A stretch of 64,000 nt of DNA from a virus. Positions 18,726 to 42,676 of this stretch are shown here, in pieces (the first letter of the stretch is position 1; every line of letters starts with the position of its first letter). Below the pieces are notes generated by a model. The model did no database searches, was not told the DNA's origin, and saw only the letters and a list, made by a program, of their open reading frames with translations. The translations under genes and the position numbers were made by a program. The stretch lies in IMG/VR virus record IMGVR_UViG_3300025732_000021, positions 32,001 to 96,000 of that record, one strand, 5' to 3'.

Positions 18726-19313
18726 TCACAAACTAACCTTGCCAGTAAAGTCTATATTAATAACACATCTTATATCATTCTTTATTGGACTAGAAGATGA
18801 GTGATATTGGAGTCCATTAAATAATATTGCCCTTCCAGCCTTTGGATTAATTTTTTTGTCAATTGTTAAATTTTTATTTTCCATGGGGTATTTTTCATTA
18901 AATAAAATTGTATCACCATCTGAATCATTTACATAATATAAAAAAACAAAATGTTCATGATCTGTATCAATATGAGGATAATGTATTTTATTATTTGTAC
19001 CATCTTTTAAAATAAGATTTGCTTTAATTCTAAACACATTGTCTACAACTATATTATGTTTATTTATAAACTTGTTAAAAATATATAAAAATGTGTCTGA
19101 AAACTGAGAATGTTTTTGTGAGTTATGATAGGCAAGGTGAACAAATTGTTGTGAATCTAAATAATCGTCATTATTTAAGATGACACCAGAACTATCTTTT
19201 TTATTAGTTGAACCATAAAAATACCATGGAAAGTTAGAATTAGGTATATCATACATCATTTTTTGTAAACTAATTATTTCTTCTTGATTTAAAAATGAAT
19301 CATCTATAATCAT
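18726..19313 (-). CDS. 2OG-Fe(II) oxygenase
   Basis: PHID, LYYVNDSDGDT, FNGLQYHSS, R-x-V-I-N. Confidence 0.8.
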   Translation of the reverse strand: MIIDDSFLNQEEIISLQKMMYDIPNSNFPWYFYGSTNKKDSSGVILNNDDYLDSQQFVHLAYHNSQKHSQFSDTFLYIFNKFINKHNIVVDNVFRIKANLILKDGTNNKIHYPHIDTDHEHFVFLYYVNDSDGDTILFNEKYPMENKNLTIDKKINPKAGRAILFNGLQYHSSSSPIKNDIRCVINIDFTGKVSL

Positions 19314-19352
19314 AATAATTAATTCTACCATATGATGGTGTATAATTAAAAT

Positions 19353-21066: not shown

Positions 21067-21642
21067 TTATTTACTAGTTAAAAAACAACGAAGTGCATAT
21101 TTTTTACCATTAATTATTGAATTAGATCTATGACTATAAGGCCAGTTAGATGGAAAAATTATTAAACTATTTGCTGGCGGTTTTATTTTTATATTAAAGT
21201 GCTCAAATTCTAACTCTCCACCATCATAGTTATCGTTTAAATACGCCAATGCAGCGCCTATTCTAAAGTCTTCACCATTCAAGGTATCAGAATGAAATAT
21301 AATATTGTTATCTACTTCATATTTTAATAATGTTGCAACAGCCATATTAGAAGAATTATTTTGTGAAGAATCTGGGATCATAACATTTATATTATATAAA
21401 GATTGATATACTTCGGTTGTTTCTTTAATTGCTTTTTGAAATTCATCATATATTAATCTAGCATCTATATTGTCTGGATAATCACTTAATTGAATTGCAT
21501 ATGATTTTCTAACAATAGATCCATTTCTATTGTTTATTTTTAATTCAAAAAAATCTGATAAGTTTTTTTCAATAAAGTCTATATAGTTTTTACTAAATAC
21601 ATTTTCAAAAATAACTATTCCTGGTGCTAAAATTTTATACAT
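21067..21642 (-). CDS. 2OG-Fe(II) oxygenase (prolyl-4-hydroxylase-like)
   Basis: FHSD, YLNDNYDGGELEF, FPSNWPYSH, GKKY. Confidence 0.85.
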   Translation of the reverse strand: MYKILAPGIVIFENVFSKNYIDFIEKNLSDFFELKINNRNGSIVRKSYAIQLSDYPDNIDARLIYDEFQKAIKETTEVYQSLYNINVMIPDSSQNNSSNMAVATLLKYEVDNNIIFHSDTLNGEDFRIGAALAYLNDNYDGGELEFEHFNIKIKPPANSLIIFPSNWPYSHRSNSIINGKKYALRCFLTSK

Positions 21643-22926: not shown

Positions 22927-23625
22927 ATGTACGGAGATCCAAATAAATTACAAAACCAAATAGATAAAATAACAGAAAGTAGAAGCGGTGAACGTTTTTC
23001 TTTCACATCACCTATCCCTGGTCTTCATATTTATGATAATGTTTGGCCAAACTCTATGGATTTTATAAATGAAATAAGAACAGAGGAATATTGGAATAAC
23101 AATTCACATCGTGGTAGCAAACCTTGGATTCGTGAAGACTATTATAATGAATTAAATGGTAAAAAAGCAGAAACATGTTGGGTATGGAATGATCCAAGAT
23201 TTGCAGAACATTTTCAAGAAATTGTAGACTCTTATTTATGGCAGTGGGACTTGGCCCCATTAAGTAGAGAAGCCATGAGAATATCAAGATATGAGCCAGG
23301 TGAGTTTTTCTCTTTACATGCAGACGATTCGTATGGAACGCCAAGAACAGTATCCCTAGTTTATTATCCAAATGATGACTATGACGGAGGAGAATTAGAA
23401 TTTATTCATTTTGGTGTTAAAATTAAACCAAAGGCTGGACAACTATTTTTATTCCCGTCTGCGTATAGTTATATGCATAAAATACATGGCATTACTTCTG
23501 GTATAAGGTATACACTTGTTTCGTTTTTTGCAGAAATTTCAGAAAAAGAAAGACAAACTAGGATGTCTTCTATAGAATTTCCATATACTACTGATCTTCA
23601 ATATCAATTTTCAGATAATGCATAA
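22927..23625 (+). CDS. 2OG-Fe(II) oxygenase (P4H-like)
   Basis: LHADD, YPNDDYDGGELEF, FPSAYSYMH, GIRY. Confidence 0.85.
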   Translation: MYGDPNKLQNQIDKITESRSGERFSFTSPIPGLHIYDNVWPNSMDFINEIRTEEYWNNNSHRGSKPWIREDYYNELNGKKAETCWVWNDPRFAEHFQEIVDSYLWQWDLAPLSREAMRISRYEPGEFFSLHADDSYGTPRTVSLVYYPNDDYDGGELEFIHFGVKIKPKAGQLFLFPSAYSYMHKIHGITSGIRYTLVSFFAEISEKERQTRMSSIEFPYTTDLQYQFSDNA

Positions 23626-24509
23626 TGACTTTAAAAAAAATAATTAACGACAAAGTTTATTCTGTACATGATGAAATAGAGTGTGAAAAAGGAATATTTC
23701 CAGCATGGATTGTTCAACCTGGATTTTTTTTAAAGGGTGGAGAATTAGTTTATAGAATTGAATGGGAAGATAACGTTCCAGAAAAGTCATTTTATTTTTT
23801 ACATATTCCAAAAACCTCTGGTATGTCTGTGAAAGAAGTATTGCTACATACCTATAAAGATCATAGAATCTATAGTAACTTTTTACAATATTTAGATGAT
23901 AAAGAAATGTTAAAATGTGATTTTATATCAGGTCATTTTGCGTTATATCCAATAGAATTATTTAAAAAACATGAAAAGAAATTATTTACATATACAATAC
24001 TTAGAAATCCAACAGACAGATATATAAGTAATTATTTATATAAAAATGAAAATCCTAGTTTAGAGAAGTTAGAAGAGCATATGTTTGATAATAGAAATGA
24101 TAATATGCAATATAAATATTTAACATGTACTCTCAATATGTCTGATTTAAAAAGATTTTATGATAAATTAGCATCAAAAGAAATTACTTTTGATCAATAT
24201 AAAGAATTTTCGTTATCATATAATGATTTAGTTCGGGTGTATAGCAACATTGATAGTGCTCTTTCAAATATAGATTATATTGAAACTATAGACAATCAAA
24301 ATGATTTATCAAATTTAAATAATTTTTTAGAAAAAAATATTAATATTTCTTTGTCAACAAAAATTAAAGGATATCAAAATACTGGAAGTGAAAAAAATAA
24401 TGAATTTAAAAAAACAATTCCAGATAGTTTTAAAAAATTAATAACAGAAAAACAAAATTTAGATTATGAATTATATGAAAAAGTAAAGATGGGCTACTAC
24501 AAAGAATAG
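23625..24509 (+). CDS. sulfotransferase-family protein
   Basis: FLHIPKTSGMS, SGHF, ILRNPTDRYIS, LDYELYE. Confidence 0.75.
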   Translation: MTLKKIINDKVYSVHDEIECEKGIFPAWIVQPGFFLKGGELVYRIEWEDNVPEKSFYFLHIPKTSGMSVKEVLLHTYKDHRIYSNFLQYLDDKEMLKCDFISGHFALYPIELFKKHEKKLFTYTILRNPTDRYISNYLYKNENPSLEKLEEHMFDNRNDNMQYKYLTCTLNMSDLKRFYDKLASKEITFDQYKEFSLSYNDLVRVYSNIDSALSNIDYIETIDNQNDLSNLNNFLEKNINISLSTKIKGYQNTGSEKNNEFKKTIPDSFKKLITEKQNLDYELYEKVKMGYYKE

Positions 24510-24942: not shown

Positions 24943-25148
24943 GTTTCTCCTTTGATATTGTTTGGATGATCCATTGGTGTTGGAATGGTCATTAATGTAT
25001 CACACTCACTACACTCTCCATCTAAGAAATACATTCCAACTTCATAGTCAACTGGATCAAATATAACTTTAACCTTTATTATTTTTGATCCACACAAGGG
25101 ACAACAAGCAGAAGGAATGCCTCTTAAATCTAGTTTATTCTGTTTCAT
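24939..25148 (-). CDS. zinc-ribbon protein
   Basis: CPLCGS...ECSECD. Confidence 0.7.
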   Translation of the reverse strand: MKQNKLDLRGIPSACCPLCGSKIIKVKVIFDPVDYEVGMYFLDGECSECDTLMTIPTPMDHPNNIKGET

Positions 25149-26679
25149 AAAATTTTTCTTTTAGTATTTCAAAATGCGACTTAGAATTATCTACAATACT
25201 ATCCCAATTTTTCTTTGCCTCTAATCTCTTACTAAAATATTCATCCATTTTAGTTTTTATATCAGAGTTATTAAAGTGCGACATTTTTTCTAATAAACTA
25301 ATATATGTTTTGTGGAAAGGCCTTATGCCAAATCCAGTTTTAATTGTATCAACATTTTTATTTGCCCACTCAACTGATGATTTAAAATAGTTTTCTGGAT
25401 ATTTTTTTGAAGTTATATGCTTCCAATATGGCGTATCTTCTCTTTGAGATAATGCATAATGCATTCCAACAAAATCAAACATTCTTTCAATTCTAGTTTT
25501 TGTCTTATAGTTAAAATTATCTATATCGTATTGTGTTACATGCTCTCTTTCAAGAGCATCAACCAAAGTAAAACAATTTTGATGAGTTAGTAACAATCCA
25601 GTACTTTCTAATGGTTCTAAAAATCCTGCAGATAATCCAATAGCAACTACATTTTTAACCCAAAATCTGTCATAATACCCATTAGTAATTTTTATATTTT
25701 TAAAAGTTAAATTTTTAGATCTATTTGGATCATGAACTACCATTTTGTCTGAATCTAAATAATTTTTATATTCTTCTAATGCATCATCATCTGAAATAAA
25801 TTCATTACAGTATACGTACCCAGAGCCTATTCTATTCCATAAAGGAATATTCCAAATCCACCCATTATTTATAGCAGTACAATTTGTAAAAGTTTGTAAT
25901 TCTTTCTCTTTATCAGTATATGGAATATGTGCAGTCCATGCTCTATTATTTGGAAGGTATTCAGCAGTAGAAATAAATTTTTCTTTCATAAAATTACCCA
26001 AAAGGATACTTTTAAATCCAGAACAATCTATAAATAAGTCAGCATAAACTTTAGTGCCATTGTCTAAAAGTATAGATGTTATACCATTTTCATTTCCATC
26101 AATATCAGTAACTGTACCAAATATTCTATTTACACCCCTGGGGATAGCATAATATTCTGCAAGCCAGTTACCAAGTTTAGTAGCATCCATCTGCAATGCT
26201 AAATCCCTATGAGGCTGATATGGATTCATTGAGTCTATATGATCAATTACAAGTTTGTTTGTTTCCATGCTTTTAGCCTGCGGGAAAAAATATCTTACAT
26301 AATCTTGATCTTCTGTTTTTGGATAAAATGCTTTTTTATAATGCCAATCATCAAGTCCATAATGTGTTATTTCTGGGTCTAAATTGGGGTGTCCAAACGG
26401 ATAATAAAATGTTGGCGAATCTTTAGTTTTAAAGTTAGTAAAACCTATTGCCACTTTATAGGCAGCATTTGTATATTTCATAATGCTTGAATAGTCTAAA
26501 TCTAAAAAATTAAAAAATCCATTTATTTCAAATGTAGTACTTTCTCCTACACCAATAATTGGAATATCTGTGCTTTCAATTAAAGAAATATTTTTTTCTG
26601 GGTATGCTTTTATTAGTGCAGATGCAGTCATCCATCCAGCAGAACCCCCGCCAACTATTACTATTTTATTAATTTGCAT
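25135..26679 (-). CDS. flavin-dependent tryptophan-halogenase-family protein
   Basis: GGGSAGWMTA, IGVGEST, K, FIDCSGF, WIWNIPL (WxWxIP), GFLEPLESTG. Confidence 0.9.
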   Translation of the reverse strand: MQINKIVIVGGGSAGWMTASALIKAYPEKNISLIESTDIPIIGVGESTTFEINGFFNFLDLDYSSIMKYTNAAYKVAIGFTNFKTKDSPTFYYPFGHPNLDPEITHYGLDDWHYKKAFYPKTEDQDYVRYFFPQAKSMETNKLVIDHIDSMNPYQPHRDLALQMDATKLGNWLAEYYAIPRGVNRIFGTVTDIDGNENGITSILLDNGTKVYADLFIDCSGFKSILLGNFMKEKFISTAEYLPNNRAWTAHIPYTDKEKELQTFTNCTAINNGWIWNIPLWNRIGSGYVYCNEFISDDDALEEYKNYLDSDKMVVHDPNRSKNLTFKNIKITNGYYDRFWVKNVVAIGLSAGFLEPLESTGLLLTHQNCFTLVDALEREHVTQYDIDNFNYKTKTRIERMFDFVGMHYALSQREDTPYWKHITSKKYPENYFKSSVEWANKNVDTIKTGFGIRPFHKTYISLLEKMSHFNNSDIKTKMDEYFSKRLEAKKNWDSIVDNSKSHFEILKEKFYETE

Positions 26680-27031
26680 CTGGCTTCATACTTTCTAAGT
26701 TATCAAAAGCCTTTTTAATTCTAAGAACAGATAAATCATTTGGAGACGATGACTCTTGATCTAAAATTTTAGCAAATGTAATTAATTCTTTTTGTAAATC
26801 TTCAATATACTTATACGCCATATCTCTTGTTTCAGTTAAAAATGCTATTAGATGTTCTTGTTCAATATTTTCTGAATTATTTTCTATTTTTTCTTTAATA
26901 CTGTTTATATCTATGGCAGATTGTGTTAACAAAAACATTAACTCTATATTTTTATTTTTTAATCTTATGTTTTCTATAACTGCGCCAACAATAACTATAA
27001 CAACTAAAATAAAAACTAATAAATCAAGCAT
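26669..27031 (-). CDS. membrane-anchored coiled-coil protein
   Basis: N-terminal TM helix. Confidence 0.65.
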   Translation of the reverse strand: MLDLLVFILVVIVIVGAVIENIRLKNKNIELMFLLTQSAIDINSIKEKIENNSENIEQEHLIAFLTETRDMAYKYIEDLQKELITFAKILDQESSSPNDLSVLRIKKAFDNLESMKPDAN

Positions 27032-27521
27032 ATTTATCCTCGTGTGTTGGCCAATAATACTTACAAGGTTCTTTACGATTTGGACAGCAAGGTGAGTTAT
27101 TTATGCTATAAATAGCGTGTTGAAATTTTGCATAATAAAGAGGATCTTTTTTAAATAAATTTGCTTTGTGTGTGGTAATAACAAGCATTAATTTATTTTT
27201 ATCTATAAACCATTTAGGTTTATTTTTACCCCAAATTTTAGAAAATCTTGTTTTTAATAATTTCATATTTTCTTGATTTTTATCAACTTTTATATTTCTA
27301 GACTTTGCTTCTTTAATCATTGCATAAACGTATTCATTAAGCATCCATTCGCTGCCTTTCCACATAAGTACGGCAGGATGATTGCGCCAACCACCAGTAG
27401 GTGAGTTTCCAGAGAGCACATTTAGTATTTGGTAGCCTTCTAATATTTGCTTATTTAATCTTTTAGAATCAAGCATTTTTGCACAGATATTAAAATCTGA
27501 TGATGGTAGAAATGTTTGCAT
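27024..27521 (-). CDS. pyrimidine-dimer DNA glycosylase family (MSMEG_6728-like)
   Basis: MQTFLP, LDSKRLNKQILE, GWRNHPAVLMW, YYWP. Confidence 0.85.
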   Translation of the reverse strand: MQTFLPSSDFNICAKMLDSKRLNKQILEGYQILNVLSGNSPTGGWRNHPAVLMWKGSEWMLNEYVYAMIKEAKSRNIKVDKNQENMKLLKTRFSKIWGKNKPKWFIDKNKLMLVITTHKANLFKKDPLYYAKFQHAIYSINNSPCCPNRKEPCKYYWPTHEDKYA

Positions 27522-27888: not shown

Positions 27889-28191
27889 TTATGACAAAAG
27901 GTCTTCTGATTGTTTTGGCGCTGTAATAATAATAGCCTTAGAACCTTCCCAACGAACTCTTCCCTTACATCCAACATTCCATTTTGTCTCACCGTTATGC
28001 TGATTCACAATATCATAAACATATCCATGAATTTCAAATCCACTTGCTAAATTTTCAACTCCATTAATAAAAATTCTCCATACCAAAGGATCTTCTGGTT
28101 GTGCCTTTGTATTAAACCTTACAGTAATTTCATCATATGGTCTAATCCAACGGTCTTTTACTATTTCCCAAATATATTTAATTTTATTCAT
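27889..28191 (-). CDS. hypothetical protein
   Basis: Coupled; RFNTK...WRIFING. Confidence 0.7.
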   Translation of the reverse strand: MNKIKYIWEIVKDRWIRPYDEITVRFNTKAQPEDPLVWRIFINGVENLASGFEIHGYVYDIVNQHNGETKWNVGCKGRVRWEGSKAIIITAPKQSEDLLS

Positions 28192-28949
28192 ATTCCCATT
28201 TCCTTACGTTTTTGTGTCGCAGAAATAGCCTGTATTTCTGGAGCAAGTTCAATCTGTTCAATTTTATATCCTACATCACGACCATAAACTATGTTAGTAA
28301 TATTTGGCAAACGTAGCACCATTGCCCCATCCATAAACTCATCTTTTGAAATATATTCTTTAACTTGATCAAATTTAAGCGGATCTTTTGGACTTGTGTT
28401 ATATGTATTGCGTACCCCAAGAAGCACTTGTTTTGTTCTTTTCCCAGCCTCTTCATACAAAGCATGATGGCCTTCATGCCAAGGCTGATATCTACCAAGC
28501 ATTAATGTTGTAGGTGCTGACCAATCGTGTAAATTAAATTGATTAATGATTACCGATGCTTTTTCATTGGCATCCCATTCATGACTAATAAATGCCATAT
28601 CAAAGTTAGATGGCACTTCAAACATTTTATTAGTATCTTCAAATCTACCAGCCTCAATTGTTTCCATATAAACTAAAATATCTGGCTTACCAAATGCTGC
28701 ACGAGTTAATTCTGTAGGACAAACAAAATCAACTACTACTGGTGCAACCCCTTGTTTTGCAATAAGACGAGCCATCTCACCCATTCGTCTTGCCTGCTCA
28801 ATCCTATCTTCATGGCTAAAGCCAAGGTCAGAATTTACGGTAGCACGAACCTCATCCGCATTAAGATGAATAGCATTAATTCGTTCTTTTAATGCTTTTG
28901 CTAACTCTGTCTTACCAGAACCTGGTAATCCTATAATTTGTATAATCAT
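28188..28949 (-). CDS. adenylylsulfate-kinase-like domain fused to an HxGH nucleotidyltransferase
   Basis: GLPGSGKT P-loop, NADEVR, DLGFSHEDR; C-terminal GRYQPWHEGH. Confidence 0.85.
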   Translation of the reverse strand: MIIQIIGLPGSGKTELAKALKERINAIHLNADEVRATVNSDLGFSHEDRIEQARRMGEMARLIAKQGVAPVVVDFVCPTELTRAAFGKPDILVYMETIEAGRFEDTNKMFEVPSNFDMAFISHEWDANEKASVIINQFNLHDWSAPTTLMLGRYQPWHEGHHALYEEAGKRTKQVLLGVRNTYNTSPKDPLKFDQVKEYISKDEFMDGAMVLRLPNITNIVYGRDVGYKIEQIELAPEIQAISATQKRKEMGI

Positions 28950-29152
28950 TCAAAATCCCTCTGACTTTCAAAAATTTTATTTATATCATCTTCAATTATA
29001 TCAAATGATCTATTATCATGATTTTTACATACAGGATGTATTGAGTAACCATCTGCAATTATTGTTATTGCAAAACCATCACAGTAATAACATTTAGACA
29101 TAATTTTTTTATTTTTTTGTCTTAAAAATTCTAAATATTCTTTATTGTTCAT
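28946..29152 (-). CDS. small Cys/His protein
   Basis: CYYC...CKNH. Confidence 0.6.
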   Translation of the reverse strand: MNNKEYLEFLRQKNKKIMSKCYYCDGFAITIIADGYSIHPVCKNHDNRSFDIIEDDINKIFESQRDFE

Positions 29153-29154
29153 TT

Positions 29155-29595
29155 TTATACTCTTCCAATATGATCACTACAGATTCCAGCCATCTGCATA
29201 TTTAAAACATCTGCGGTTGGCATTTCTTGATGAACCAAAATACTTTTTGGTGTAACTGGCATACCAGGGTATGTCCATATATAATGATTAGTAGTTATTG
29301 TAAAATCATCTTCTTGGTGCCAAAACGCATTATAATATTTTGGCATTGATAAAACTAAATCTAAGGCTTCTAAATTTTTACAATGAATCCATAACTTTTT
29401 AATATAAGAATTTAAAAAATATATGTCGATCTCATATGTTGGTTTATCATGTCCTAAATACATTTTATTATTTACAAACCAAAAATCTATTTCAACATTG
29501 TATCCAGCATTTATAGCCTCAGCAATATAATCTGGGGAGTTTTCTCTTGATTCATTTTTACCATATAGATTACCCCTATGTGATATTTTAATCAT
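29155..29595 (-). CDS. glycerophosphodiester-phosphodiesterase-like (PLC-like) protein
   Basis: ISHRGN, ENS, VEID, LGHD, WIHCKN, GICSD. Confidence 0.8.
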   Translation of the reverse strand: MIKISHRGNLYGKNESRENSPDYIAEAINAGYNVEIDFWFVNNKMYLGHDKPTYEIDIYFLNSYIKKLWIHCKNLEALDLVLSMPKYYNAFWHQEDDFTITTNHYIWTYPGMPVTPKSILVHQEMPTADVLNMQMAGICSDHIGRV

Positions 29596-30793
29596 TAACA
29601 ATTCCCCACTTTTCTATAGCAGAAATATATTCTGGACCATAGGACTTATCTATAGCCTGCCTCATGGCCATAGTGCCCCCTAAAGTGCCACCAGAATGCC
29701 CGTGGATGGCTCCTCCTACGTTTGCCATATAGTTTATACCAAACCTTCTGCTTATAGCCTCTACAAGGCCAGGATGCATTCCGCAACTTAGCGCTGGCAC
29801 AACATTATTATCATTTAATAAATCTATAGATCTTTTTAAATTATCTTCGTCATCACTTAAATACCCACCCCACATACCAGTATGTATCGTATCTACTCCC
29901 ATTAATGCTGCTAACTTACAAATAACATACCAATCAATTCTAAAATTATGACTAGGATTTGTTAATATCTTATCCCCGCTTTTTTGAAAATGCATATATA
30001 TTGGAAGATCCATTTTTCGTATAGAGTTATATGCTCCAAATCCGCTCCAGAAGTTTACATGTACACCATTACCACCATTTTCATATACTGTTTTTACTCT
30101 ATTTAAAATAGCATGTGGATCAGCATTAATACAATGAGCAAAAACTACCTTTCTTCCAGAATCTGCGATAATGTTAGCAATGTGCTCAACTCTTTCTTCT
30201 AGCCTACAAAATGTTGGGTTAGATAATATTTCATCTTCTTTAATAAAATCAACGCCACCATCAATTAACTCTTTAACTATATATCCTAGTTGTTTAACTG
30301 ATATTCCAGTTTTAGGTTTTACAATACCGCCTAACAATGGCTTATTTTTTTGTCCAGTTAACTCTCTTATTCCAGACATACCAAACTTAGGGCCAAGAAA
30401 ACTCTTTTTTACACTTTCTGGAAATTCAACATCTACCACTCTACATACTTTAAATACATCAATGTCTAATTGTCCACCCATAATCTGACATAAGAAATGC
30501 GAAATACCATCGTTATCCCAATCTGAATTTATTTTTGGAAAACCAATTTTAACAAAACCATTTAGTGCTAATTTTAATTTTTCTTCATCATCATAAATAA
30601 CACATGATGACATTTCAAATATATCATCAGTTTCCCAACTATTTCTTTGTTTTGGATTACCAACACTTTGTCCAATAGCAAGCGCCCATGCAGCATCATT
30701 TAATCTACCATGTGAAGGATTGACTTCTATATAATATGTTACAACTATACATCTTTGTTTTTCAGAGTCGTCTAAGTCTCTATAAAACTTCAT
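29588..30793 (-). CDS. RuBisCO-like protein (form IV RLP)
   Basis: GPKFGMSGIREL, PLLGGIVKPKTG, GGVDFIKEDE, IHTG, ALSCGMHPG, VGGAIHGH. Confidence 0.9.
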   Translation of the reverse strand: MKFYRDLDDSEKQRCIVVTYYIEVNPSHGRLNDAAWALAIGQSVGNPKQRNSWETDDIFEMSSCVIYDDEEKLKLALNGFVKIGFPKINSDWDNDGISHFLCQIMGGQLDIDVFKVCRVVDVEFPESVKKSFLGPKFGMSGIRELTGQKNKPLLGGIVKPKTGISVKQLGYIVKELIDGGVDFIKEDEILSNPTFCRLEERVEHIANIIADSGRKVVFAHCINADPHAILNRVKTVYENGGNGVHVNFWSGFGAYNSIRKMDLPIYMHFQKSGDKILTNPSHNFRIDWYVICKLAALMGVDTIHTGMWGGYLSDDEDNLKRSIDLLNDNNVVPALSCGMHPGLVEAISRRFGINYMANVGGAIHGHSGGTLGGTMAMRQAIDKSYGPEYISAIEKWGIVND

Positions 30794-31103
30794 ACTTATC
30801 TCCTATAATAGATGGAACTTTTACTACTAAAACTGAACAATCTTCTAAAAATATTGGATCTGCTATATCTCCTGGATTAAAAACAAAAACGTCTCCAGAT
30901 TTTAATTCTTTTCCTTGTATTATCATTCTACCAGATACAAGAACATTATATTCTGTTGCAACCTCATGGTAATGTTTTGGCCACATTTCTCCAGCCTTAT
31001 GAGTTAACAAACCAACCTCAAATTTATCTGTTTTTAATAAAGACGGATCAAAGTTTCCTATAATCCATCCTCTGGTAAAGTCTTCTATTCTTCTAATTTC
31101 CAT
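30780..31103 (-). CDS. cupin-domain protein
   Basis: RGWIIGNF, HYH..ATEYN, GDVFVFNPG, VKVPS..GDK. Confidence 0.8.
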   Translation of the reverse strand: MEIRRIEDFTRGWIIGNFDPSLLKTDKFEVGLLTHKAGEMWPKHYHEVATEYNVLVSGRMIIQGKELKSGDVFVFNPGDIADPIFLEDCSVLVVKVPSIIGDKYEVL

Positions 31104-31813
31104 AGTTTCTCCATATATAGTTCTAAATCAGAAGGTACTCCAACAGCATTATGTTGAAAAGAAGGTATGTGATAAATTCCAATTTTTTTACCATCTTTAA
31201 TCATTGAATTATAAGTAGGTCCTACATAAAATTCTCCATTATATCTTTCGTTATTTAATATCATTTTGCTTGCACTATCAACAAAATCTTTTCCATGTTT
31301 CCAATAATGTATTCCATTTAATGATATATCACTTATAATTTCTTTTTCTTTTATTTCTAAAACTAATCCATTTTTATTTATTTTAGCATAACTATTTTTA
31401 TCTGTATTTGCGGTATAAGTTACAATCATTCCATCATATTTTGAATTACGTGCTACCTGTAAAAATAAATCAGAATCCCACCACATTATTTGATCAGAGT
31501 TAGCAATTATGAGTTCTTCATCATTATTGATAAAATCTTTTGCCATCAAGCATGTTTCTGCTGGTCCATTTGTTAATTTATCAATCTTAATAATATTACA
31601 TGTTGGCTCAATGTTTTTTAATGTTGAATATAATTCATCAAAAAATATGTTATCTCTAACTACAAAATTATACTTTCCTTTTATAGATAAAGAATTTATG
31701 GCATGCTGTATCATAGAAATTCCATTTATTTTTATTAATGGCTTAGTTGTTTTATATATGTCTACTGGAAACCTACTACCAAGTCCAGCAATTGGAATAA
31801 GTATATTAGTCAT
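31085..31813 (-). CDS. sugar-phosphate nucleotidyltransferase (GT-A/NTP_transferase)
   Basis: IPIAGLGSRF...KPLI, GPAET, ANSDQ, EIKEK, NGEFYV. Confidence 0.85.
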   Translation of the reverse strand: MTNILIPIAGLGSRFPVDIYKTTKPLIKINGISMIQHAINSLSIKGKYNFVVRDNIFFDELYSTLKNIEPTCNIIKIDKLTNGPAETCLMAKDFINNDEELIIANSDQIMWWDSDLFLQVARNSKYDGMIVTYTANTDKNSYAKINKNGLVLEIKEKEIISDISLNGIHYWKHGKDFVDSASKMILNNERYNGEFYVGPTYNSMIKDGKKIGIYHIPSFQHNAVGVPSDLELYMEKLWKLEE

Positions 31814-32768
31814 ATATTTTTATAAACCTTTCAAGTTCTTTTTCTATTTTATCATATTTTCTAGTGACATTTGGTACTGATACATATATTTTTTCAGAAA
31901 ATAAAGAAGATATTAGATAAAAATGAAAATGAAATTCTATATTCTGTTTAAGTAATTGTGTTGTACTTAACTCTATAATGGTTGTATTTTTTCTCATAAA
32001 AAGCAAATTAGTGAGTCCTGATCCAGATAATGAAACTATAATTTTTGCTTTATCAAAATATTTTATTTGATCTTCAATGCTATTAAACATTTCTGGGGTA
32101 CATATTTCAAATCCATTGGCTCTTAATAAATTCTCTAAATATTCTTCATTATCAATTCTTAAATCATCTTTAAATTCTAATTTATCTATTTCTTCTTGTG
32201 ACATTTGGTGTAATTGTGTTGCCATCATGTTTTGTTTTTTTTGTCTAGAAACATATATTTTTTTGTCATTAGATATAGAAAGATCTCGATATCCTTCAAC
32301 CATCTCATCAAGACAGCGAATAAATTCTCCACATAACTCTGTCTCTTCGTAATAATAAAAATTTCTAACTATTGGGGGATAAATAGAATGTGTTTGCACA
32401 ACGCTATACGGAATACCATATTTTCTTAATACATTTATTACAAATAATCCACTATTATGAAAAATATCTTTTTCTTTGCTTGGATGTAATAGTATTACCT
32501 CAATGTTTTTATCTTGTTTATATTCATATAAAATTGGACCAAGTACGTGAAAAAATATATGAAAAAATGCTGACTCAAATCTAACGACTATCCTTTTTCT
32601 ATTAGTATCATCTAAAAAGTGATCTCCGTTATTATGTTGATTAAATGTATAGCCCTTAAATTCTTCATGAGTTATCTTAGTAATAATTGGCATAGAAGCA
32701 TTAAATCCATCTTCAATTTTAAATAAGCCATCATAATATATTGGCTTTCTTGGTTCCATTCTTATCAT
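31806..32768 (-). CDS. glycosyltransferase family 61-like
   Basis: FFH, KIYVSR, R..NE, EDQIKYF, SGSGLTNLLFM, IIEL. Confidence 0.75.
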   Translation of the reverse strand: MIRMEPRKPIYYDGLFKIEDGFNASMPIITKITHEEFKGYTFNQHNNGDHFLDDTNRKRIVVRFESAFFHIFFHVLGPILYEYKQDKNIEVILLHPSKEKDIFHNSGLFVINVLRKYGIPYSVVQTHSIYPPIVRNFYYYEETELCGEFIRCLDEMVEGYRDLSISNDKKIYVSRQKKQNMMATQLHQMSQEEIDKLEFKDDLRIDNEEYLENLLRANGFEICTPEMFNSIEDQIKYFDKAKIIVSLSGSGLTNLLFMRKNTTIIELSTTQLLKQNIEFHFHFYLISSLFSEKIYVSVPNVTRKYDKIEKELERFIKIYD

Positions 32769-33694
32769 AAATACTCCAAAAATTTTCTTTTTTCAAAATA
32801 TTCTATTATATGCTCTGATTTTCTTTCATGTGGAATAGTAATAAGATTATGTTTTTTTGCCCAAGCAAAACCTTCATAAAATGGATGCACTTGTTGTGTT
32901 CCACCTATTAATACTGGGGTTTGCAATTCCACCACAATTTGTGATGGCTGCAAAAACATCATATTAGCCATGCCAGAACCAGATGGACATATCATTGCCT
33001 TTACACTGTCAAAATAAATAATTTGTTCTTCAAAACTTGCAAAATCTTCTGGATAAACTATGTCAAAACCTTTTTGCTTAAAATATTCAATTAATACCTC
33101 TTCATCTTCTATCCTTAAATCATTTTTTATTCTAAAAGAATTTTGATCTTTTCCATTAAAAATACTATTTTCTGCTTTTGGTGGAACTTTTGATCTTGCT
33201 AAATAGGCAACTTTATTAGGAGATTTAACTCTATTTATTTTAGTACTACAATAGTCATACACTTCTTTAAAAACAAAAGAAGAAAAAGGTATAACTGACA
33301 TATATGTTGCATCTTTAACTACAATTGACTCTTCTTTTAAATAAACTAATTCATATTTAATTTTTTTATCATCTAAAAGTTTTAAGATAAACTTAGCATG
33401 ATTTATTTCTTTGTCTTCTTCACGATAATCTAATCCAAACATTATGACAAAATAAGCATCATTATTTATTCTATGATAGTGTAAAATGTACTGAACCATA
33501 TTAAAAAATGCATGTAAAAAATTTTTTTGCCATAAGACTAAATGAAGATCAGGTTTTTCAATTAGTCTTTCAGAAAATTCCTCATTATCTTCTAACTGTC
33601 CCATAATTGGCCATACATAACCTAATTTTGGAACACTTATTCTATGTAGTCCCTCTAGTTTATTTGGCTGCTTCCAATCTCCGTATACAAACAT
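32765..33694 (-). CDS. glycosyltransferase family 61-like, tandem paralog
   Basis: AYLARS, RIEDE, EEQIIYF, SGSGMANMMFL, VVEL. Confidence 0.75.
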   Translation of the reverse strand: MFVYGDWKQPNKLEGLHRISVPKLGYVWPIMGQLEDNEEFSERLIEKPDLHLVLWQKNFLHAFFNMVQYILHYHRINNDAYFVIMFGLDYREEDKEINHAKFILKLLDDKKIKYELVYLKEESIVVKDATYMSVIPFSSFVFKEVYDYCSTKINRVKSPNKVAYLARSKVPPKAENSIFNGKDQNSFRIKNDLRIEDEEVLIEYFKQKGFDIVYPEDFASFEEQIIYFDSVKAMICPSGSGMANMMFLQPSQIVVELQTPVLIGGTQQVHPFYEGFAWAKKHNLITIPHERKSEHIIEYFEKRKFLEYL

Positions 33695-33979
33695 TTATTT
33701 TTCATTTGTCAGGATAGTCCAGACATTGCTCCAATCTTTTTCTGATCTATGGGAATTAAATTCTTTAGAAATATCACCATTTTCTAAATAAACTCCACCC
33801 CAAACTCCCCATTCTTTTTGAGAAACACCTACAGAAAAACAAGTTTTTAAGACTGGACAACTTAAACATAATTTGTCTATTGCTTCTCTAAAAGACTCAG
33901 ATTCTTCATATTTATCAAAAAATATATTTGTGTCATATCCAAGGCAACTGGCATTATCTTTCCATTTTATTTTATGCAT
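33695..33979 (-). CDS. whiB: WhiB-family Fe-S transcription factor
   Basis: W...ASC...IFF...CLSCPV..TC...WGVWGG (four Cys plus GVWGG). Confidence 0.9.
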   Translation of the reverse strand: MHKIKWKDNASCLGYDTNIFFDKYEESESFREAIDKLCLSCPVLKTCFSVGVSQKEWGVWGGVYLENGDISKEFNSHRSEKDWSNVWTILTNEK

Positions 33980-37717: not shown

Positions 37718-38437
37718 TCATTTGATTTGAGATATGACAAGTGTGTAATGTGAGTAAAAGGTATGTATATTGTTTTTCCATCCATTTATTATGTCAAAAT
37801 TAAATGGAAAAAGTCTATATGGCTTTATAAATTCTAGAGCATTAGTAGTCTTCCCCCTTATAATTTTCTGTGTTGGCTTACTAAGATCAATACATATGGC
37901 AATATCTCTATATGGAAAAACAGTTGCTATATCCTCTAAATGTTTATTTAAAAATGGAATACATATCAGCACTATAGGACAATTAATATTAGATAATGTT
38001 TCTAAAAATTTAACTGTATCAGTATTTGGTATTCTTCCTCCAAAATAGAATTGTCCACTATCTCCATCAAATCCTGAAAAAAATAAAGATTGTAATATTG
38101 CATTTGGACCAGGAATTAATTCAATTTCTATGTTGTTCTCTATTAAAGATTGTATTAATGGTGAAGCAAAATCTTGTATATTTGGATATCCATCATTTGA
38201 CACAACAAGTATATTTTTGTTATTTTTAATACCATTTAAAATTATTTCTAAAGAATTAGAGTTATTATATTCATATATATTGTTAATATAAACACCATTA
38301 ATATCGCAAAAATTTTTGAAAACTTTTTCTGTTTCAACAATTGCTATATCTGTTTGATTTAAATAATTTTTAAATGCTATAGCAATATGATCATTATTGC
38401 CTATTGGCATAGCAGCAAATACAACTTTTTTGTTCAT
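37718..38437 (-). CDS. RsmI-like methyltransferase, third divergent copy
   Basis: AMPIGNND, VSNDGYPNIQD, IPGPNA...SG, DLSK. Confidence 0.75.
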   Translation of the reverse strand: MNKKVVFAAMPIGNNDHIAIAFKNYLNQTDIAIVETEKVFKNFCDINGVYINNIYEYNNSNSLEIILNGIKNNKNILVVSNDGYPNIQDFASPLIQSLIENNIEIELIPGPNAILQSLFFSGFDGDSGQFYFGGRIPNTDTVKFLETLSNINCPIVLICIPFLNKHLEDIATVFPYRDIAICIDLSKPTQKIIRGKTTNALEFIKPYRLFPFNFDIINGWKNNIHTFYSHYTLVISQIK

Positions 38438-39870
38438 CGTACTATTTTAGTATTGTATGCTTTTTCCCATTCTAAAATATCATTTTCATCATTTAATAAT
38501 GGCTGACCTTTAATATTTAAACTTGTATTAAGTAATATTGGGATTCCAGTGACAGCATACCATTCCGATAATAGATTGTATAGTCCTGGATGTTGATTTT
38601 TATTTACAGTTTGAACTCTAGATGTACCGTCTTTATGTACTACAGACGGTATAAGTTCTGGCTTTAAACATTTAGGAGTATACTGCATATAAGGAGAAGT
38701 ATAATTCATATCAAACCATTTTGATGCATGCTCTTCTAAAATTACTGGAGCAAAAGGCCTGAATAATTCTCTTTTTTTAATTAAATTAACCTTATCTTTA
38801 ATGTCAGGATCCCTTGGATCTGCCAAAATACTTCTGTTTCCAAGTGCTCTTGGTCCGTATTCTGCACGTCCAGTTGCAACTGCTGCAATTTTATTTCTTA
38901 TTAATTCTGCCATAATTTTACTGACTGGATACTCTCCACCAAGATCGTAACCTAAATATGGATGCTCCCAATTTAAATGATTTCCATATGCTGCTGCTGC
39001 TGCGCCAAGAGAGGATCCAGCGTCGCCTGGATTTGGCATAATCCAAACATCATCAAACATCCTCCATAACATTGTGTTTGCTGCACAATTAAGGGCGCAT
39101 CCACCCATAAAAACAAGATTCTTTTTACCAGTTAATTTTTGAGCCATGGCCATGAAATTAACTAATCTATCCTCATATATTTTTTGAACTGCTGCTGCTA
39201 TATCAAACTTGGCTTGTTCATCTATTATTTCATTCCAATCTAAAATACCATTATGGAATCCATATTTTTGGTCATCTATAGATGAAAAGTATTCTTTTAC
39301 CTTGTTATAATATCTTGTCCAGTCACCATATGCAGCCATGCCCATCATAATATACTCTTCTTCATTTGGTTTTAATCCAACTAATTGAGTAAAGGCAGAA
39401 TAGAATAGCCCAAAACTAAATGGATGATTTTTTTTATAGACCTGCTTAATATATGATCCCTGTCCAGTCCAGATTGTTGATGTATTATATTCCCCTATGG
39501 CATCTAAAACAACTATTACTGCATCATTAAATTTACTCGTGTAATAACCTGCTGCTGCATGAGAATGGTGATGGCTAAAAGATTCTCTTGGTATCCATCT
39601 TAAATCATTTCTTTCAAGATAATAAGGTTTTCCTCCTCCGAAGCCACCCCTAGTCATTATTCTTATTTTTTTTAACCAACGATTTTCATAATATGCTATT
39701 TGATCTGGCTTACCATACGAAAGTGCTTGATCTATTAGTTCGTCGTTTGTAAACCAATCATTTTTTTCTTTACTGTATCTTTCAGCATGGCCAGCAAACA
39801 AAATGCTACCATTATCTATTAATGATACAGAAGCATCATGTGTTGTTTCATTAATTCCTAAAATTTTCAT
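38434..39870 (-). CDS. carbamoyltransferase (NodU/CmcH/TobZ family)
   Basis: HDAS, ERYS, HHHSHAA, DAIGE, MGMAAYG, GGCALN, EYGPRALGNRS, RPFAP, NTSLN. Confidence 0.92.
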   Translation of the reverse strand: MKILGINETTHDASVSLIDNGSILFAGHAERYSKEKNDWFTNDELIDQALSYGKPDQIAYYENRWLKKIRIMTRGGFGGGKPYYLERNDLRWIPRESFSHHHSHAAAGYYTSKFNDAVIVVLDAIGEYNTSTIWTGQGSYIKQVYKKNHPFSFGLFYSAFTQLVGLKPNEEEYIMMGMAAYGDWTRYYNKVKEYFSSIDDQKYGFHNGILDWNEIIDEQAKFDIAAAVQKIYEDRLVNFMAMAQKLTGKKNLVFMGGCALNCAANTMLWRMFDDVWIMPNPGDAGSSLGAAAAAYGNHLNWEHPYLGYDLGGEYPVSKIMAELIRNKIAAVATGRAEYGPRALGNRSILADPRDPDIKDKVNLIKKRELFRPFAPVILEEHASKWFDMNYTSPYMQYTPKCLKPELIPSVVHKDGTSRVQTVNKNQHPGLYNLLSEWYAVTGIPILLNTSLNIKGQPLLNDENDILEWEKAYNTKIVR

Positions 39871-40540
39871 AATTAATCCTCTTCTTAAATTCATTATACC
39901 AAATTAAATGTGCTGCAGGTCCAGGATGATGTTTATCATCACCAAGAATTTCACCACCATAATAATCTATATCGCTTTTATTAATTTCAAAAAAAGTATC
40001 AAAATTATTTAAAAAATCAAATTCATTTTTAGATGACCAGGAAGATGATAGAAGTTTTATATTATTAAAATAACAAAAAATTTCTAAAGATTTGTAAAAA
40101 TTATAAACAACTTTATCAATATGATCTTTAATTATATATCTTCCATCCCTATGTATTGGTGGCAATAATATAAAAATATAATCTGGATTTCCATATAAAT
40201 TTATATATTTATATATATTTGATATTATTTCTATTGGCGAACCGCCTGGAAGAGAAACATTAAAAAATCCAGAAGAATTTTTGAAATCAGAATAAACTTT
40301 ATATGCCCATGTATCTTCTATATTAACACCTATACCACAAGTTATAGAACAGCCAGCAAATAAAATATGTTCGCCATTATGATTTTTTATAAATTCATCT
40401 GATCTTAATCCATGTGAGTTTAATTTATATATTACATTACTGTTTGAAATATTTTTTCTATAATCTGGCATACCATCTTTATGCCAAAAAACTGGAGAGA
40501 TAGTGGTGTTTTTTGTTAAATAATTTTCATAAAATTCCAT
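39851..40540 (-). CDS. SGNH/GDSL-like protein
   Basis: NSHGLRSDEF, GCSITCG, DKHHPG. Confidence 0.7.
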   Translation of the reverse strand: MEFYENYLTKNTTISPVFWHKDGMPDYRKNISNSNVIYKLNSHGLRSDEFIKNHNGEHILFAGCSITCGIGVNIEDTWAYKVYSDFKNSSGFFNVSLPGGSPIEIISNIYKYINLYGNPDYIFILLPPIHRDGRYIIKDHIDKVVYNFYKSLEIFCYFNNIKLLSSSWSSKNEFDFLNNFDTFFEINKSDIDYYGGEILGDDKHHPGPAAHLIWYNEFKKRINYENFRN

Positions 40541-41211
40541 TATTCCTGGCCAGTCGACATTATTGGAGTCTTCATATTATGATACCAATGTGGCATGGAA
40601 TATCTAGTTCCACTAATAATTGGAGCAACTTCATGTATATATAAATAATTTGAAGGAAAGAAAATAATACTTCCTGGTTCTGGCTTTATTTTAACATTAG
40701 AATTTGGAAAAGATATTTCTCCACCTTCGTAATCATTATTTAAATACATAACAACAGAAATTACTCTGCTACTTACCCCATGATCTTGATGTGCTGGTAG
40801 GTACCCACCTTTTTCATACCTTAAAAGGTGCACACTATATTCTCTAGACTTAATATTTCTTGATGCAAATGGATATATAATATTTGTATAATGATTTGTT
40901 GCAGCATCTAATGCATCATAAAGTCTTTTAGAGACATACTGCTGATCCTTATAATAATAATCATCTGCTCTAATGTCCTCTGGTTTTGGGAAAAATTTTT
41001 GCCAACAAAAAGTTTCTAATGTTCCAGCACTTTCATTTTGCCAAGCATGCCAGGGTTGAACTGCAGTATAATTATCTCCGTGTTCTTTTTGATTATATTT
41101 TTCATCAACAGATTTAACTATATCAATAATTTCTTGTGGATTATTTAAAGCATTTTTATAATAAACTAATCCTAAATCTAATATTTCATAATCATAAGTA
41201 GTTAAATTCAT
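40540..41211 (-). CDS. 2OG-Fe(II) oxygenase (P4H-like)
   Basis: AHQD, YLNNDYEGGEI, FPSNYLYIHEV, GTRY. Confidence 0.85.
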   Translation of the reverse strand: MNLTTYDYEILDLGLVYYKNALNNPQEIIDIVKSVDEKYNQKEHGDNYTAVQPWHAWQNESAGTLETFCWQKFFPKPEDIRADDYYYKDQQYVSKRLYDALDAATNHYTNIIYPFASRNIKSREYSVHLLRYEKGGYLPAHQDHGVSSRVISVVMYLNNDYEGGEISFPNSNVKIKPEPGSIIFFPSNYLYIHEVAPIISGTRYSMPHWYHNMKTPIMSTGQE

Positions 41212-41794
41212 GTTCTGGCGCCCTCCATTTTGGATTCTTATCTTCTCCAAGAAAATCTGGATCTGCATGTTGAGGAAGAGATGTATGCATATATAAAGCG
41301 GTATATCTATTGCCAGAAGTTACTTCTGTTATACCATGAATATATTCACTTCCAGCACTTGGAAAAAAGACTGCAGAATATCTTTTTGGTTGATAAATAA
41401 AATCTTGATTTGGAAAAAATATTTTTCCTCCAGTATAGTCTGGCTCCTCATTTAGATATATTATAGTACTCCACTCAATCCATGGCTCTGGATCTTGTGC
41501 GTCTAAATGTAACGGTCCTTTTGTGCCAGTAGTCCAGTGTGAACCAAATGCCTTAAACACATATATTGGACTATTAAATCCGTTTAATTCTTTGTGAACC
41601 TCATTAGATTTATCGCCATATTTCTTTAATATAGACATTACTGTTGGGTTATATGGTAAAGATGTACCACCAAATCTTTCTTTATAATATTCTGGATATG
41701 GAAGCCTAATTGAGTTTGGATCATTTTGTTGCTGTATTAATGTTAAAGCATCTATTGGCTCTATAAAATTATCTATAATTTTAATTCTATGCAT
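41192..41794 (-). CDS. 2OG-Fe(II) oxygenase (P4H-like)
   Basis: LHLD, YLNE...GG.IFF, YIHGI, GNRY. Confidence 0.85.
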   Translation of the reverse strand: MHRIKIIDNFIEPIDALTLIQQQNDPNSIRLPYPEYYKERFGGTSLPYNPTVMSILKKYGDKSNEVHKELNGFNSPIYVFKAFGSHWTTGTKGPLHLDAQDPEPWIEWSTIIYLNEEPDYTGGKIFFPNQDFIYQPKRYSAVFFPSAGSEYIHGITEVTSGNRYTALYMHTSLPQHADPDFLGEDKNPKWRAPEHEFNYL

Positions 41795-41821: not shown

Positions 41822-42676
41822 TTAGTAAATATAGTGTAAATGGCCTATAAATTTTCTTCCATCAAGTTTGTCAAAATCATTATTATAACAATCATATTCA
41901 ACATCGTTTGTTTGAAATGGTAACGGAAATATTTTTTCTAAATCTATATTATGATAAGACAAAAAATCATTTACTGTTCTAGCAGTTCCAGGATCAAAAA
42001 ATGAACTATGCTGATTTTTTATAATTTTAATTATTTCATTATAATTATGATCTTTAGAATAAGGTGTATATAAAATATCTATAGAATTCTGATTATTTTT
42101 TGTATAAAAACTACTTGGACAAGAATATATATCTATTCCTCTTGTAAACCAATACATTGATAAATACTCTGCCTCGCCATTATATTTTAAAAAAGTTGGG
42201 TAGTTAGTATTATGAAAAAGTTCTTTTGAAATAAAAATAAAATCTTTGTCTACAAAATTTGATAATATAAAATCATCAGAATTTAGCGAATTATTATAAA
42301 AGTAAAAGTTATCATTTGTTATTGACGGAATTCCTTTTCCAGATATAACAGAATTTGTTTTATAATTTTTAATTAATTCTAAATCCCAGTTATTATTTAC
42401 TAAAATATTATCAGACATTATTAAAATAAATTCTTCTTGTATATTTCTTGCAGTTTCAAATCTATATAAGCACTGACCATATGGGTAGTCCCAAAATTTA
42501 TGTTTATATGAAACATTGCTTATAGAATTATAATATTCATTTTTTATTAATGGTGATTGGTCTAATATATAAATATTGATTGTATGTTCTTTGGATGAAT
42601 TTTCATTAATTTTTTGCACAACATCTTTTAAAGATTTTCCTTTATAAGAATAAATAACTACCCCAATGCTACTCAT
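41822..42676 (-). CDS. GT-A fold glycosyltransferase-like protein
   Basis: VVIYSYK, DQS, ILIMSD...NWD, GEAEYLS..WFTRG. Confidence 0.55.
   Translation of the reverse strand: MSSIGVVIYSYKGKSLKDVVQKINENSSKEHTINIYILDQSPLIKNEYYNSISNVSYKHKFWDYPYGQCLYRFETARNIQEEFILIMSDNILVNNNWDLELIKNYKTNSVISGKGIPSITNDNFYFYNNSLNSDDFILSNFVDKDFIFISKELFHNTNYPTFLKYNGEAEYLSMYWFTRGIDIYSCPSSFYTKNNQNSIDILYTPYSKDHNYNEIIKIIKNQHSSFFDPGTARTVNDFLSYHNIDLEKIFPLPFQTNDVEYDCYNNDFDKLDGRKFIGHLHYIY

Follow-up and report, generated by a model that had tools for sequence, protein, structure and literature searches.

A RuBisCO-like protein in a conserved viral gene cassette and its probable part in making an activated sugar

What is a member of the RuBisCO large-subunit superfamily doing in a phage, in one row with glycosyltransferase genes? 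The question is raised by a 64,000-nucleotide stretch of the virus record IMGVR_UViG_3300025732_000021 (positions 32,001 to 96,000; the whole stretch is hereafter called the window), which is part of a 121,867-base IMG/VR record rated complete by CheckV. On the minus strand of the window, six genes (29155–33694) encode two family 61 glycosyltransferases (GT61a and GT61b), a nucleotidyltransferase (NTase), a small cupin, a RuBisCO-like protein (RLP) and a short GDPD-like protein (mini-GDPD). This cassette is probably an accessory glycan-building module, whose core would make an unusual sugar activated with a nucleoside diphosphate (NDP). The reading is preferred because the RLP, NTase, cupin and mini-GDPD show conserved linkage and occur in fusion proteins, because their neighbours in cells are glycan genes, because the nearest solved relatives of the NTase are sugar-1-phosphate NTases, and because the same slot in a sibling locus (L188) holds a beta-phosphoglucomutase-like HAD protein together with the NTase, a pairing that corresponds to the classical route to an NDP-sugar by mutase and pyrophosphorylase.

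The GT61a gene (32765–33694, 309 amino acids) and the GT61b gene (31806–32768, 320 amino acids) matched PF04577 Glyco_transf_61 with 56.6 and 65.1 bits, respectively (cut-off, 27). The NTase gene (31085–31813, 242 amino acids) matched PF00483 NTP_transferase with 23.7 bits (cut-off, 21.2) and phrog_3980 with an E-value (E) of 2.6e-57, and the cupin gene (30780–31103, 107 amino acids) reached 21.4 bits with Cupin_2 (E 2e-4), under the cut-off of 27.2, and matched phrog_24762 (E 3.1e-33). The product of the RLP gene (29588–30793, 401 amino acids) is a member of the RuBisCO large-subunit superfamily, with both Pfam domains passing their gathering scores (PF00016 RuBisCO_large, 132.2 bits against 30.1; PF02788 RuBisCO_large_N, 23.4 against 20.7). 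The mini-GDPD gene (29155–29601), which encodes 148 amino acids from a TTG start or 146 from an in-frame ATG at 29595, had no Pfam match and was assigned to phrog_34507 (E 1.1e-26). The PHROGs families of the NTase, cupin and mini-GDPD are viral families of unknown function, and the RLP had no match among the PHROGs families.

The sequence-only reading had described six overlapping genes directly after whiB, and the open reading frames (ORFs) were found as described: the stops and starts overlap by 4, 8, 19, 14 and 14 nucleotides (the last by 8 if the ATG start is used), and there is zero gap between GT61a and the whiB-like regulator gene (33695–33979, minus strand; Pfam WhiB, 45.6 bits against a cut-off of 23.6). 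The further claim of a translationally coupled operon of six holds for the overlaps and not for the limits, which are unmapped. The co-directional dense packing extends beyond both ends of the set; a backbone ORF of 68 amino acids outside the cassette (28946–29152, minus strand) begins 2 nucleotides after the mini-GDPD gene and overlaps by 4 nucleotides the next backbone gene (28188–28949, minus strand). The product of the latter combines an N-terminal half like an APS-kinase-type P-loop kinase (Pfam APS_kinase, E 1e-15) with a cytidylyltransferase-like half, and matched phrog_10255 (E 7e-65). Genes that start within the preceding gene are frequent in phage genomes, and such overlaps by themselves are not beyond chance. 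Scans for promoters and terminators gave 60 and 2 sites, respectively, against 68.2 and 3.1 expected from shuffled sequence; since the scans were no richer than the shuffles, "operon of six" describes a gene content, not a mapped transcript, and the operon limits are undefined.

The linkage of the genes was analyzed in other loci carrying relatives of the RLP. The IMG/VR scan returned 234 stretches, of which the best 80 were examined as viral loci, and a scan in which each prokaryote species was represented by one genome gave 40 cellular-labelled loci. When neighbours were counted by tblastn (E<1e-4 for cellular loci), a search that short proteins may escape, an NTase was found near the RLP in 76 of the 80 viral and 37 of the 40 cellular-labelled loci, a cupin in 69 and a mini-GDPD in 68 of the viral loci. 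The NTase, cupin, RLP and mini-GDPD thus form a conserved core, and their prevailing order in viral loci is NTase-cupin-RLP-GDPD. The cellular-labelled carriers include SAR11, four Legionellaceae, Woese-, Pace-, Nano- and Micrarchaeota, Verrucomicrobia, Elusimicrobia, Turneriella, Azospirillum and others. The NTase gene lies upstream of the RLP gene in phages and some SAR11, and downstream of it in Legionella and DPANN; because the gene order varies between groups, the pairing of RLP and NTase points to selection rather than simple inheritance. In the SAR11 single-cell genomes (L097–L108) the order is mini-GDPD, NTase, RLP, NTase, with NTase-like genes on both sides of the RLP and a DUF7796 gene on the opposite strand.

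Fusion proteins join the same partners. The RLP is fused to an NTase in P0124 (667 amino acids), which has 39% identity to the window NTase (E 2e-51), and to both NTase and cupin in P0121 (813 amino acids) and P0122 (817 amino acids); the cupin is the C-terminal domain of P0122, and a matching cupin motif is present in P0121. In a Micrarchaeota metagenome-assembled genome (L098), a 505-amino-acid protein beside the RLP combines an NTase with a GDPD-like domain (hhalign, 99.9% and 95%).

The solved structures closest to the RLP were form III RuBisCOs (8dht, E 1.4e-42; 2cwx, E 1.7e-39), and the MtnW-type structure 2oej ranked lower (E 2.3e-34). Alignment columns are named below by what we take to be the spinach RuBisCO residue numbering. 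In the alignment to 8dht, the RLP retained K159-P-K161, K185-E-D-E188, H304 (H327 column), S336-C-G338 and G360-G361, and it had Q270, G273 and Y311 in place of R295, H298 and K334, respectively; the columns of N123, E60, T65 and W66 were occupied by G, G, N and P. The KPK, K-x-D-E, S379 and GG phosphate-site elements are held in common with form III RuBisCO. These results agree with the residue list drawn up from the letters alone, in which KPK, KEDE and the H327, S379 and GG equivalents were kept and R295 and K334 were lost.

The same pattern was found throughout the clade. In an alignment of 99 distinct sequences, of which viral loci supplied 65 and cellular-labelled loci 34, 31 positions were invariant in all members, including K159, K161, K185, E186, D187, E188, R201, H245, N247, Q270, S272, G273, T278, D301, M307, Y311, S336, C337, G338, G360 and G361, and the H304 position was occupied by H in 85 sequences and by Q in the other 14. 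Strict constraint thus acts on the metal/carbamate centre and on one phosphate site, and the second phosphate site and loop 6 have been remodelled in a clade-specific manner and are equally constrained. Because the equivalents of R295, H298, K334, N123, E60, T65 and W66 are replaced, carboxylation is not expected for the RLP. Nothing points to CO2 incorporation or to the branched sugar that the sequence-only reading had entertained, and the equivalents of K334 and R295 are gone in all 99 aligned members.

Among the NCBIfam models, rubisco_III gave the best score for the RLP (198.4 bits against a cut-off of 497.45), the MtnW model NF007095 was third (153 bits against 409), and the MtnW model TIGR03332 and the OiaX model gave 129.3 bits (cut-off, 513.6) and 147 bits (cut-off, 700), so the protein lies under every curated RuBisCO, MtnW and OiaX cut-off in that collection. 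A tree was built from the 150 best of 1419 representatives: the 112 with at least 340 amino acids were kept and labelled by NCBIfam, and 103 were used after nine had been left out, comprising fusions or long forms (P0124, P0156, P0161, P0185, P0189 and P0205) and partial matches (P0167, P0214 and P0223). With the window RLP and nine cellular cassette RLPs, the tree had 113 rows; it was made by a quick search under LG+G4 with midpoint rooting, and it contained no named form I, II, IV-Photo, IV-NonPhoto or DeepYkr references. A 30-row group, consisting of the window RLP, the nine cellular cassette RLPs, 19 unlabelled representatives and P0171, was separated from the other 83 rows by a branch with SH-aLRT support of 99, and those 83 rows include form III and near-form-III sequences, 26 MtnW-type and 15 OiaX-like sequences. 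Within the group, the sister of the window RLP is that of Candidatus Pelagibacter sp. Uisw_094 (64% identity, support 98).

Three named assignments were rejected on these grounds. A bona fide RuBisCO of forms I to III is incompatible with Q270, G273 and Y311 at the R295, H298 and K334 columns and with the rubisco_III score below its cut-off. The 3-oxo-isoapionate-4-phosphate decarboxylase OiaX is rejected by its score and by the position of the RLP outside the 15-row OiaX-like group (SH-aLRT 99), and the 2,3-diketo-5-methylthiopentyl-1-phosphate (DK-MTP-1-P) enolase MtnW by scores far below both cut-offs and by a position outside the 26-row MtnW-type group (SH-aLRT 97). The prediction that the RLP stands apart from the characterised methionine-salvage clade was thereby upheld.

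MtnW deserves a further comparison, because RLP and cupin could be auxiliary enzymes that together salvage methylthioadenosine, 5-deoxyribose or sulfur, similar to MtnW-MtnD or to the RLP-cupin shunt of Rhodospirillum rubrum, with the glycan genes as unrelated neighbours. MtnW (YkrW) and the window RLP have a common fold, Mg2+/carbamyl-lysine centre and one phosphate site; MtnW enolises a ketose monophosphate, and the window RLP probably does likewise. In the MtnW pathway the cupin MtnD and the HAD enzyme MtnX act afterwards, pairs of an RLP and a cupin are consecutive in two known salvage routes, and MtnW is after all the third-best NCBIfam match. A salvage pair is nevertheless very unlikely in view of the scores and the tree, the fusion of RLP to NTase, and the lack of any further salvage gene among the scanned neighbours. 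Besides the different clade and the different partners (NTase and GDPD-like protein in the window), the N123 column, which presumably corresponds to the catalytic Lys of MtnW, holds Gly in the window RLP and invariantly across its clade.

The partner enzymes were compared with solved structures by using profiles of cassette members. The NTase profile (66 members) matched best PDB entry 4evw, an uncharacterised "NDP-sugar pyrophosphorylase" of Vibrio cholerae (E 2.4e-33), followed at E 1e-10 to 1e-6 by the sugar-1-phosphate NTases GDP-mannose pyrophosphorylase, RmlA, an HddC-like protein and GlmU, and the alcohol-phosphate cytidylyltransferases IPCT (1.6e-4) and IspD (8e-4) ranked lower. In its G-x-G-x-R loop, G10, G12 and R14 are invariant in the 66 sequences, and by these matches the NTase is placed in the sugar-phosphate NTase superfamily (PF00483). 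In the cupin, H35, H44, H46, E51 and N53 are invariant in 46 aligned sequences, giving an H44-x-H46...E51 metal motif, and the profile matched generic solved cupins (E 2.6e-6).

The mini-GDPD retains H8, R9, E20, N21, E37, D39, H51, H73, K75, H95, D98 and C141 as invariant residues, and the GDPD motifs HR...EN...E-D...HD are likewise invariant. The match of its profile (46 sequences) to the GDPD structure 7e0v (E 7.7e-5) was confined to the first ~53 residues, and its whole length was aligned to the GDPD-like C-terminal domain of the Micrarchaeota fusion with large deletions (hhalign, 95%). As a GDPD TIM barrel has ~240 amino acids, 148 are too short for a full barrel; the protein is probably best named a trimmed GDPD-like protein, with "phosphodiesterase" as a family label for a putative activity. 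Searches of the PDB with single cupin and mini-GDPD sequences gave chance-level or generic matches only, and the ESM Atlas returned only unnamed viral clusters, where a GDPD score of 0.86 on 25% of the members of one cluster is at most a lead. The two GT61 proteins share 25% identity (E 2e-20) and are the only GT61 matches in the whole 121,867-base record; GT61b had no tblastn match among 50,697 phage records.

The position of the cassette in related phages was then considered. Relatives of the kinase-like backbone gene were counted on at least 590 IMG/VR contigs, and the best 80 have 85–92% identity, which indicates an abundant freshwater phage lineage, and in none of these best 80 sibling loci was the RLP found. 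Among the 53 sibling loci with a whiB orthologue (at least 55% identity), a backbone gene follows whiB within 350 nucleotides in 50, a longer gap is present in two, and one (L188) carries a cassette. The six-gene block is therefore an accessory insert directly after the backbone gene whiB in one branch of this lineage. In the same slot, L188 (11753–15737) carries whiB, two GT61 genes, a 454-amino-acid fusion of a beta-phosphoglucomutase-like HAD domain and an NTase, and a 145-amino-acid mini-GDPD; the frame is that of the window, with the HAD domain replacing cupin and RLP, both of which are absent.

Two further contigs touch on this slot. In run X9, a DNA contig (depth 73) joins 29154 to 33902 and thereby omits 4747 bases, in which the whole cassette lies; its shorter side has only 30 letters and the sign is weak, and the junction agrees with the cassette-free sibling loci. 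The sibling contig L141 (16901–18757, minus strand) carries an NTase with a fused HAD-IIIB-like phosphatase domain, in an ORF that runs off the contig end, followed by a 109-amino-acid ORF that matched the window cupin and a 158-amino-acid ORF that matched the mini-GDPD, with no RLP between them.

HAD-NTase cassettes were also found in deposited phages. The window NTase matched 22 of the 50,697 phage records by tblastn, and the RLP matched none of them. The NTase of the cultured cyanophages S-PRM1 and DSL-LC03 forms a fusion with HAD_2. The cassettes of S-PRM1, DSL-LC03, S-CAM9 and L188 have an NTase of the same subfamily as the window (44–46% identity), the same mini-GDPD and a glycan-island setting; unlike the window they lack RLP and cupin and have the HAD domain fused to the NTase.

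The glycan context was examined by Pfam searches on 95 ORFs around eight cellular loci. The neighbours in Pelagibacter Uisw_094 are a GT9 heptosyltransferase, a 2-hydroxyacid dehydrogenase, CTP_transf_3 and a HAD-NTase fusion; in a SAR11 single-cell genome they are GT17, GT61, RmlD-like and DUF4422 proteins; in Turneriella, GT2 and radical SAM proteins; and in Woesearchaeota, GT2, a GHMP-kinase-NTase fusion, an FkbM methyltransferase and a full-length GDPD. Judged by these families, the cellular RLP loci are surface-glycan loci. The viral core lies mostly in glycan islands with DUF7796 proteins, an unnamed 257-amino-acid family, NAD-epimerases, GT11 and others. At E<=1e-40, RLP is rare in cells, being found in 2 of 151 sampled SAR11-family genomes and 1 of 101 Legionella-family genomes, with the centre genome counted each time.

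It might be supposed that the module glycosylates the phage DNA, as a base hypermodification, rather than a surface glycan. Phages do make and use NDP-sugars for DNA decoration, and accessory gene sets like the cassette are seen in host-defence arms races. The same core is present, however, in cellular loci with lipopolysaccharide- or capsule-type genes, and GT61 is not a known family of DNA glycosyltransferases. Moreover, no thymidylate-synthase-like (hydroxymethylase family) gene was found in the 121,867-base record by a search whose control was positive in 10 of 14 genomes, and we consider DNA as the target extremely improbable.

Selection was estimated against the three closest relatives as the ratio of nonsynonymous to synonymous substitution rates (dN/dS). 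With dS ~1, near saturation, the ratios are rough: 0.07–0.09 for the RLP, 0.07–0.10 for the NTase, 0.08–0.13 for the cupin, 0.12–0.26 for the mini-GDPD, 0.17–0.31 for GT61a and 0.33–0.34 for GT61b. All six cassette genes are under purifying selection, and amino-acid identity to the closest relatives is 84–88% for the core versus 52–63% for the GT61 proteins. The low dN/dS and the invariance of K159, K161 and K185-E-D-E188 in 99 of 99 sequences argue for an active RLP enzyme. Contigs of RNA libraries from three studies lie on GT61a and NTase and bridge the RLP/cupin and cupin/NTase junctions at 92–97% identity, and cover is absent from parts of the cassette; this is a weak sign that the cassette is expressed.

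On the glycan-building reading, the following route may be proposed. Through its intact Mg2+/carbamyl-lysine centre and single remaining phosphate site, the RLP would turn a ketose monophosphate, which is probably a pentulose phosphate, into its enolised form and reprotonate this intermediate to an isomer or epimer. The metal-binding cupin would carry out a subsequent isomerisation of the aldose-ketose type, and the NTase would couple the product to a nucleoside monophosphate. The two GT61 enzymes might use the NDP-sugar as donor, or build the acceptor, on a glycan of the host envelope or the virion. The mini-GDPD is a constant partner of the NTase without an assigned step. In this route, the choice of substrate, nucleotide and target glycan and the sequence of the reactions are our inference.

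Several observations weigh against this reading. In the 40 cellular-labelled loci, a cupin was found near the RLP in only 9 and a mini-GDPD in 16. Both GT61 genes are near the RLP in 4 of the 80 viral loci, and GT61 in 2 of the 40 cellular-labelled loci; whiB is near it in 4 viral and 0 cellular-labelled loci. Among the viral loci, it is the closest relatives (L003, L004, L049 and L074; RLP identity, 84–86%) that carry GT61 and whiB, and the GT61 pair is thus lineage-specific. Of the gene linkage that the earlier reading had expected to be conserved, the four-gene core is therefore retained and the GT61 pair is not; likewise, a part for the RLP in sugar-nucleotide biosynthesis is supported by its linkage to NTase, cupin and mini-GDPD, by the fusions and by the cellular glycan loci, and the role given to GT61 applies to the closest relatives only. 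The RNA-library contigs may represent DNA carry-over. To our knowledge, no enzyme of the RLP clade, the NTase subfamily or the mini-GDPD family has been assayed, and no product is known.

Further contrary evidence comes from the cyanophage S-SKS1, in which a 475-amino-acid protein (SWZG_00042; L123, 5998–7425) fuses an NTase (34% identity) to RibB, 3,4-dihydroxy-2-butanone 4-phosphate (DHBP) synthase. The RibB domain passes the NCBI ribB cut-off (188.1 against 177.45 bits), and the NTase-RibB fusion also occurs on 10–11 IMG/VR contigs. The S-SKS1 gene is annotated only as RibB, and it is followed by genes for a small HAD protein and a transaldolase-like protein. RibB is a Mg2+ enzyme that enolises a ribulose-type phosphate; its substrate is ribulose 5-phosphate and its product carries a terminal, non-anomeric phosphate. 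Since that phosphate is terminal, the NTase-RibB fusion fits an NDP-ketopolyol better than a glycosyl donor. The core might then make a CDP- or NDP-activated keto-polyol phosphate with a terminal phosphate, comparable to CDP-ribitol or CDP-methylerythritol, for phosphodiester decoration in the style of teichoic acids, and the mini-GDPD would handle the phosphodiester chemistry. Such a product would also suit the constant GDPD-like partner, once fused to the NTase, the presence of LicD, of a phospho-group transferase family, next to RLP-NTase in Legionella nautarum, and the RLP substrates of MtnW and R. rubrum, which are ketose phosphates with a non-anomeric phosphate. It is less compatible with the NTase profile, which favours sugar-1-phosphate NTases over IPCT and IspD, with the beta-phosphoglucomutase-like HAD fusions in the same NTase subfamily, and with GT61 enzymes, which transfer glycosyl groups. 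An activated keto-polyol is for these reasons held to be rather unlikely, and an NDP-activated sugar is retained as the probable product.

Taken together, NTase and mini-GDPD look like a constant core, to which RLP plus cupin, HAD or RibB would be attached as alternative feeder modules; by family precedent, the RLP would, like RibB, be a Mg2+ enzyme enolising a ribulose-type phosphate. A bolder proposal can be put forward tentatively, as a possibility that we regard as doubtful: the RLP clade would perform a chemistry new to the RuBisCO fold, namely the enolisation-based epimerisation or isomerisation of a ketose phosphate, and with the cupin would feed the NTase directly, giving a mutase-free entry to a nucleotide sugar, or an NDP-ketopolyol, that has so far not been described. 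Variation of surface glycans by this route would then be expected in many aquatic phages and in a few strains of SAR11, Legionella and DPANN, with HAD or RibB filling the slot of RLP and cupin in related cassettes.

Phage-borne RLPs are not new. Jaffe et al. (bioRxiv 10.1101/386292, PMC6389311) described ~90 "form IV-like" RLPs on IMG/VR phage contigs and left their function open, and new groups of RuBisCO homologues in ocean data were presented in the Global Ocean Sampling (GOS) paper (PMC1821046). The phage and Beckwithbacteria RLPs of Jaffe et al. are, like the window RLP, phage-borne and highly divergent, with partial catalytic residues and a place outside the other RLP groups. The two clades, compared by description only, are likely the same. 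Unlike the present analysis, the accessible text of Jaffe et al. makes no link to an NTase/cupin/GDPD cassette or to a glycan context. A search of full-text literature, with most subscription journals outside it, found no RLP tied to an NTase, a nucleotide sugar, a glycosyltransferase or viral auxiliary metabolic genes.

The carrier phage was characterised from its other genes. The record encodes a DnaE-like polymerase, a UvsX-like recombinase, a Cas4-like nuclease, an endolysin and a weak match to a terminase large subunit (E 4e-10). An origin of the RLP as a cyanophage gene was set aside: there are no T4-like marks in the window, and the carrier instead has whiB, the DnaE-like polymerase and the UvsX-like recombinase. 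The window stretch was found in freshwater metagenomes from many studies, and a DNA-level search of the phage collection gave short matches of 74–77% in Synechococcus phages only.

The cassette lies within a long run of tailoring-type genes (window 20000–46000), which includes a carbamoyltransferase (38434–39894), a sulfotransferase-like ORF (23625–24509), 2-oxoglutarate (2OG)-Fe(II)-oxygenase-like ORFs (21067–21642, 22927–23625 and 40540–41268) and two phrog_7084 paralogues (42669–44176). A 514-amino-acid protein like flavin-dependent tryptophan halogenases is encoded at 25135–26679 on the minus strand (PF04820, E 3e-103; phrog_2928, E 2e-138). Three ORFs matched the PF00590 tetrapyrrole (corrin/porphyrin) methylases (14880–15644, minus strand, E 1.9e-26; 16492–17253, plus strand, E 3.5e-16; 37718–38437, minus strand, E 2.4e-9), and three copies are odd for a phage. 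A pyrimidine-dimer DNA glycosylase (27024–27521, minus strand; PF03013, E 1.6e-18) and a phrog_274 "DNA endonuclease V" ORF (18726–19331, minus strand) suggest ultraviolet repair in a surface-water phage.

RLPs are a standard example of how an ancient fold takes on new chemistry, with only a handful of functions known. If the proposed role is true, a large and mostly viral RLP clade, with 234 matches in IMG/VR, adds a biosynthetic role to that list and probably a new activated sugar. The slot after whiB in sibling phages, which holds no cassette, an RLP cassette or a HAD-NTase cassette, points to the swapping of glycan-chemistry modules by phages, and this polymorphism may bear on host range and superinfection in very abundant freshwater phages.

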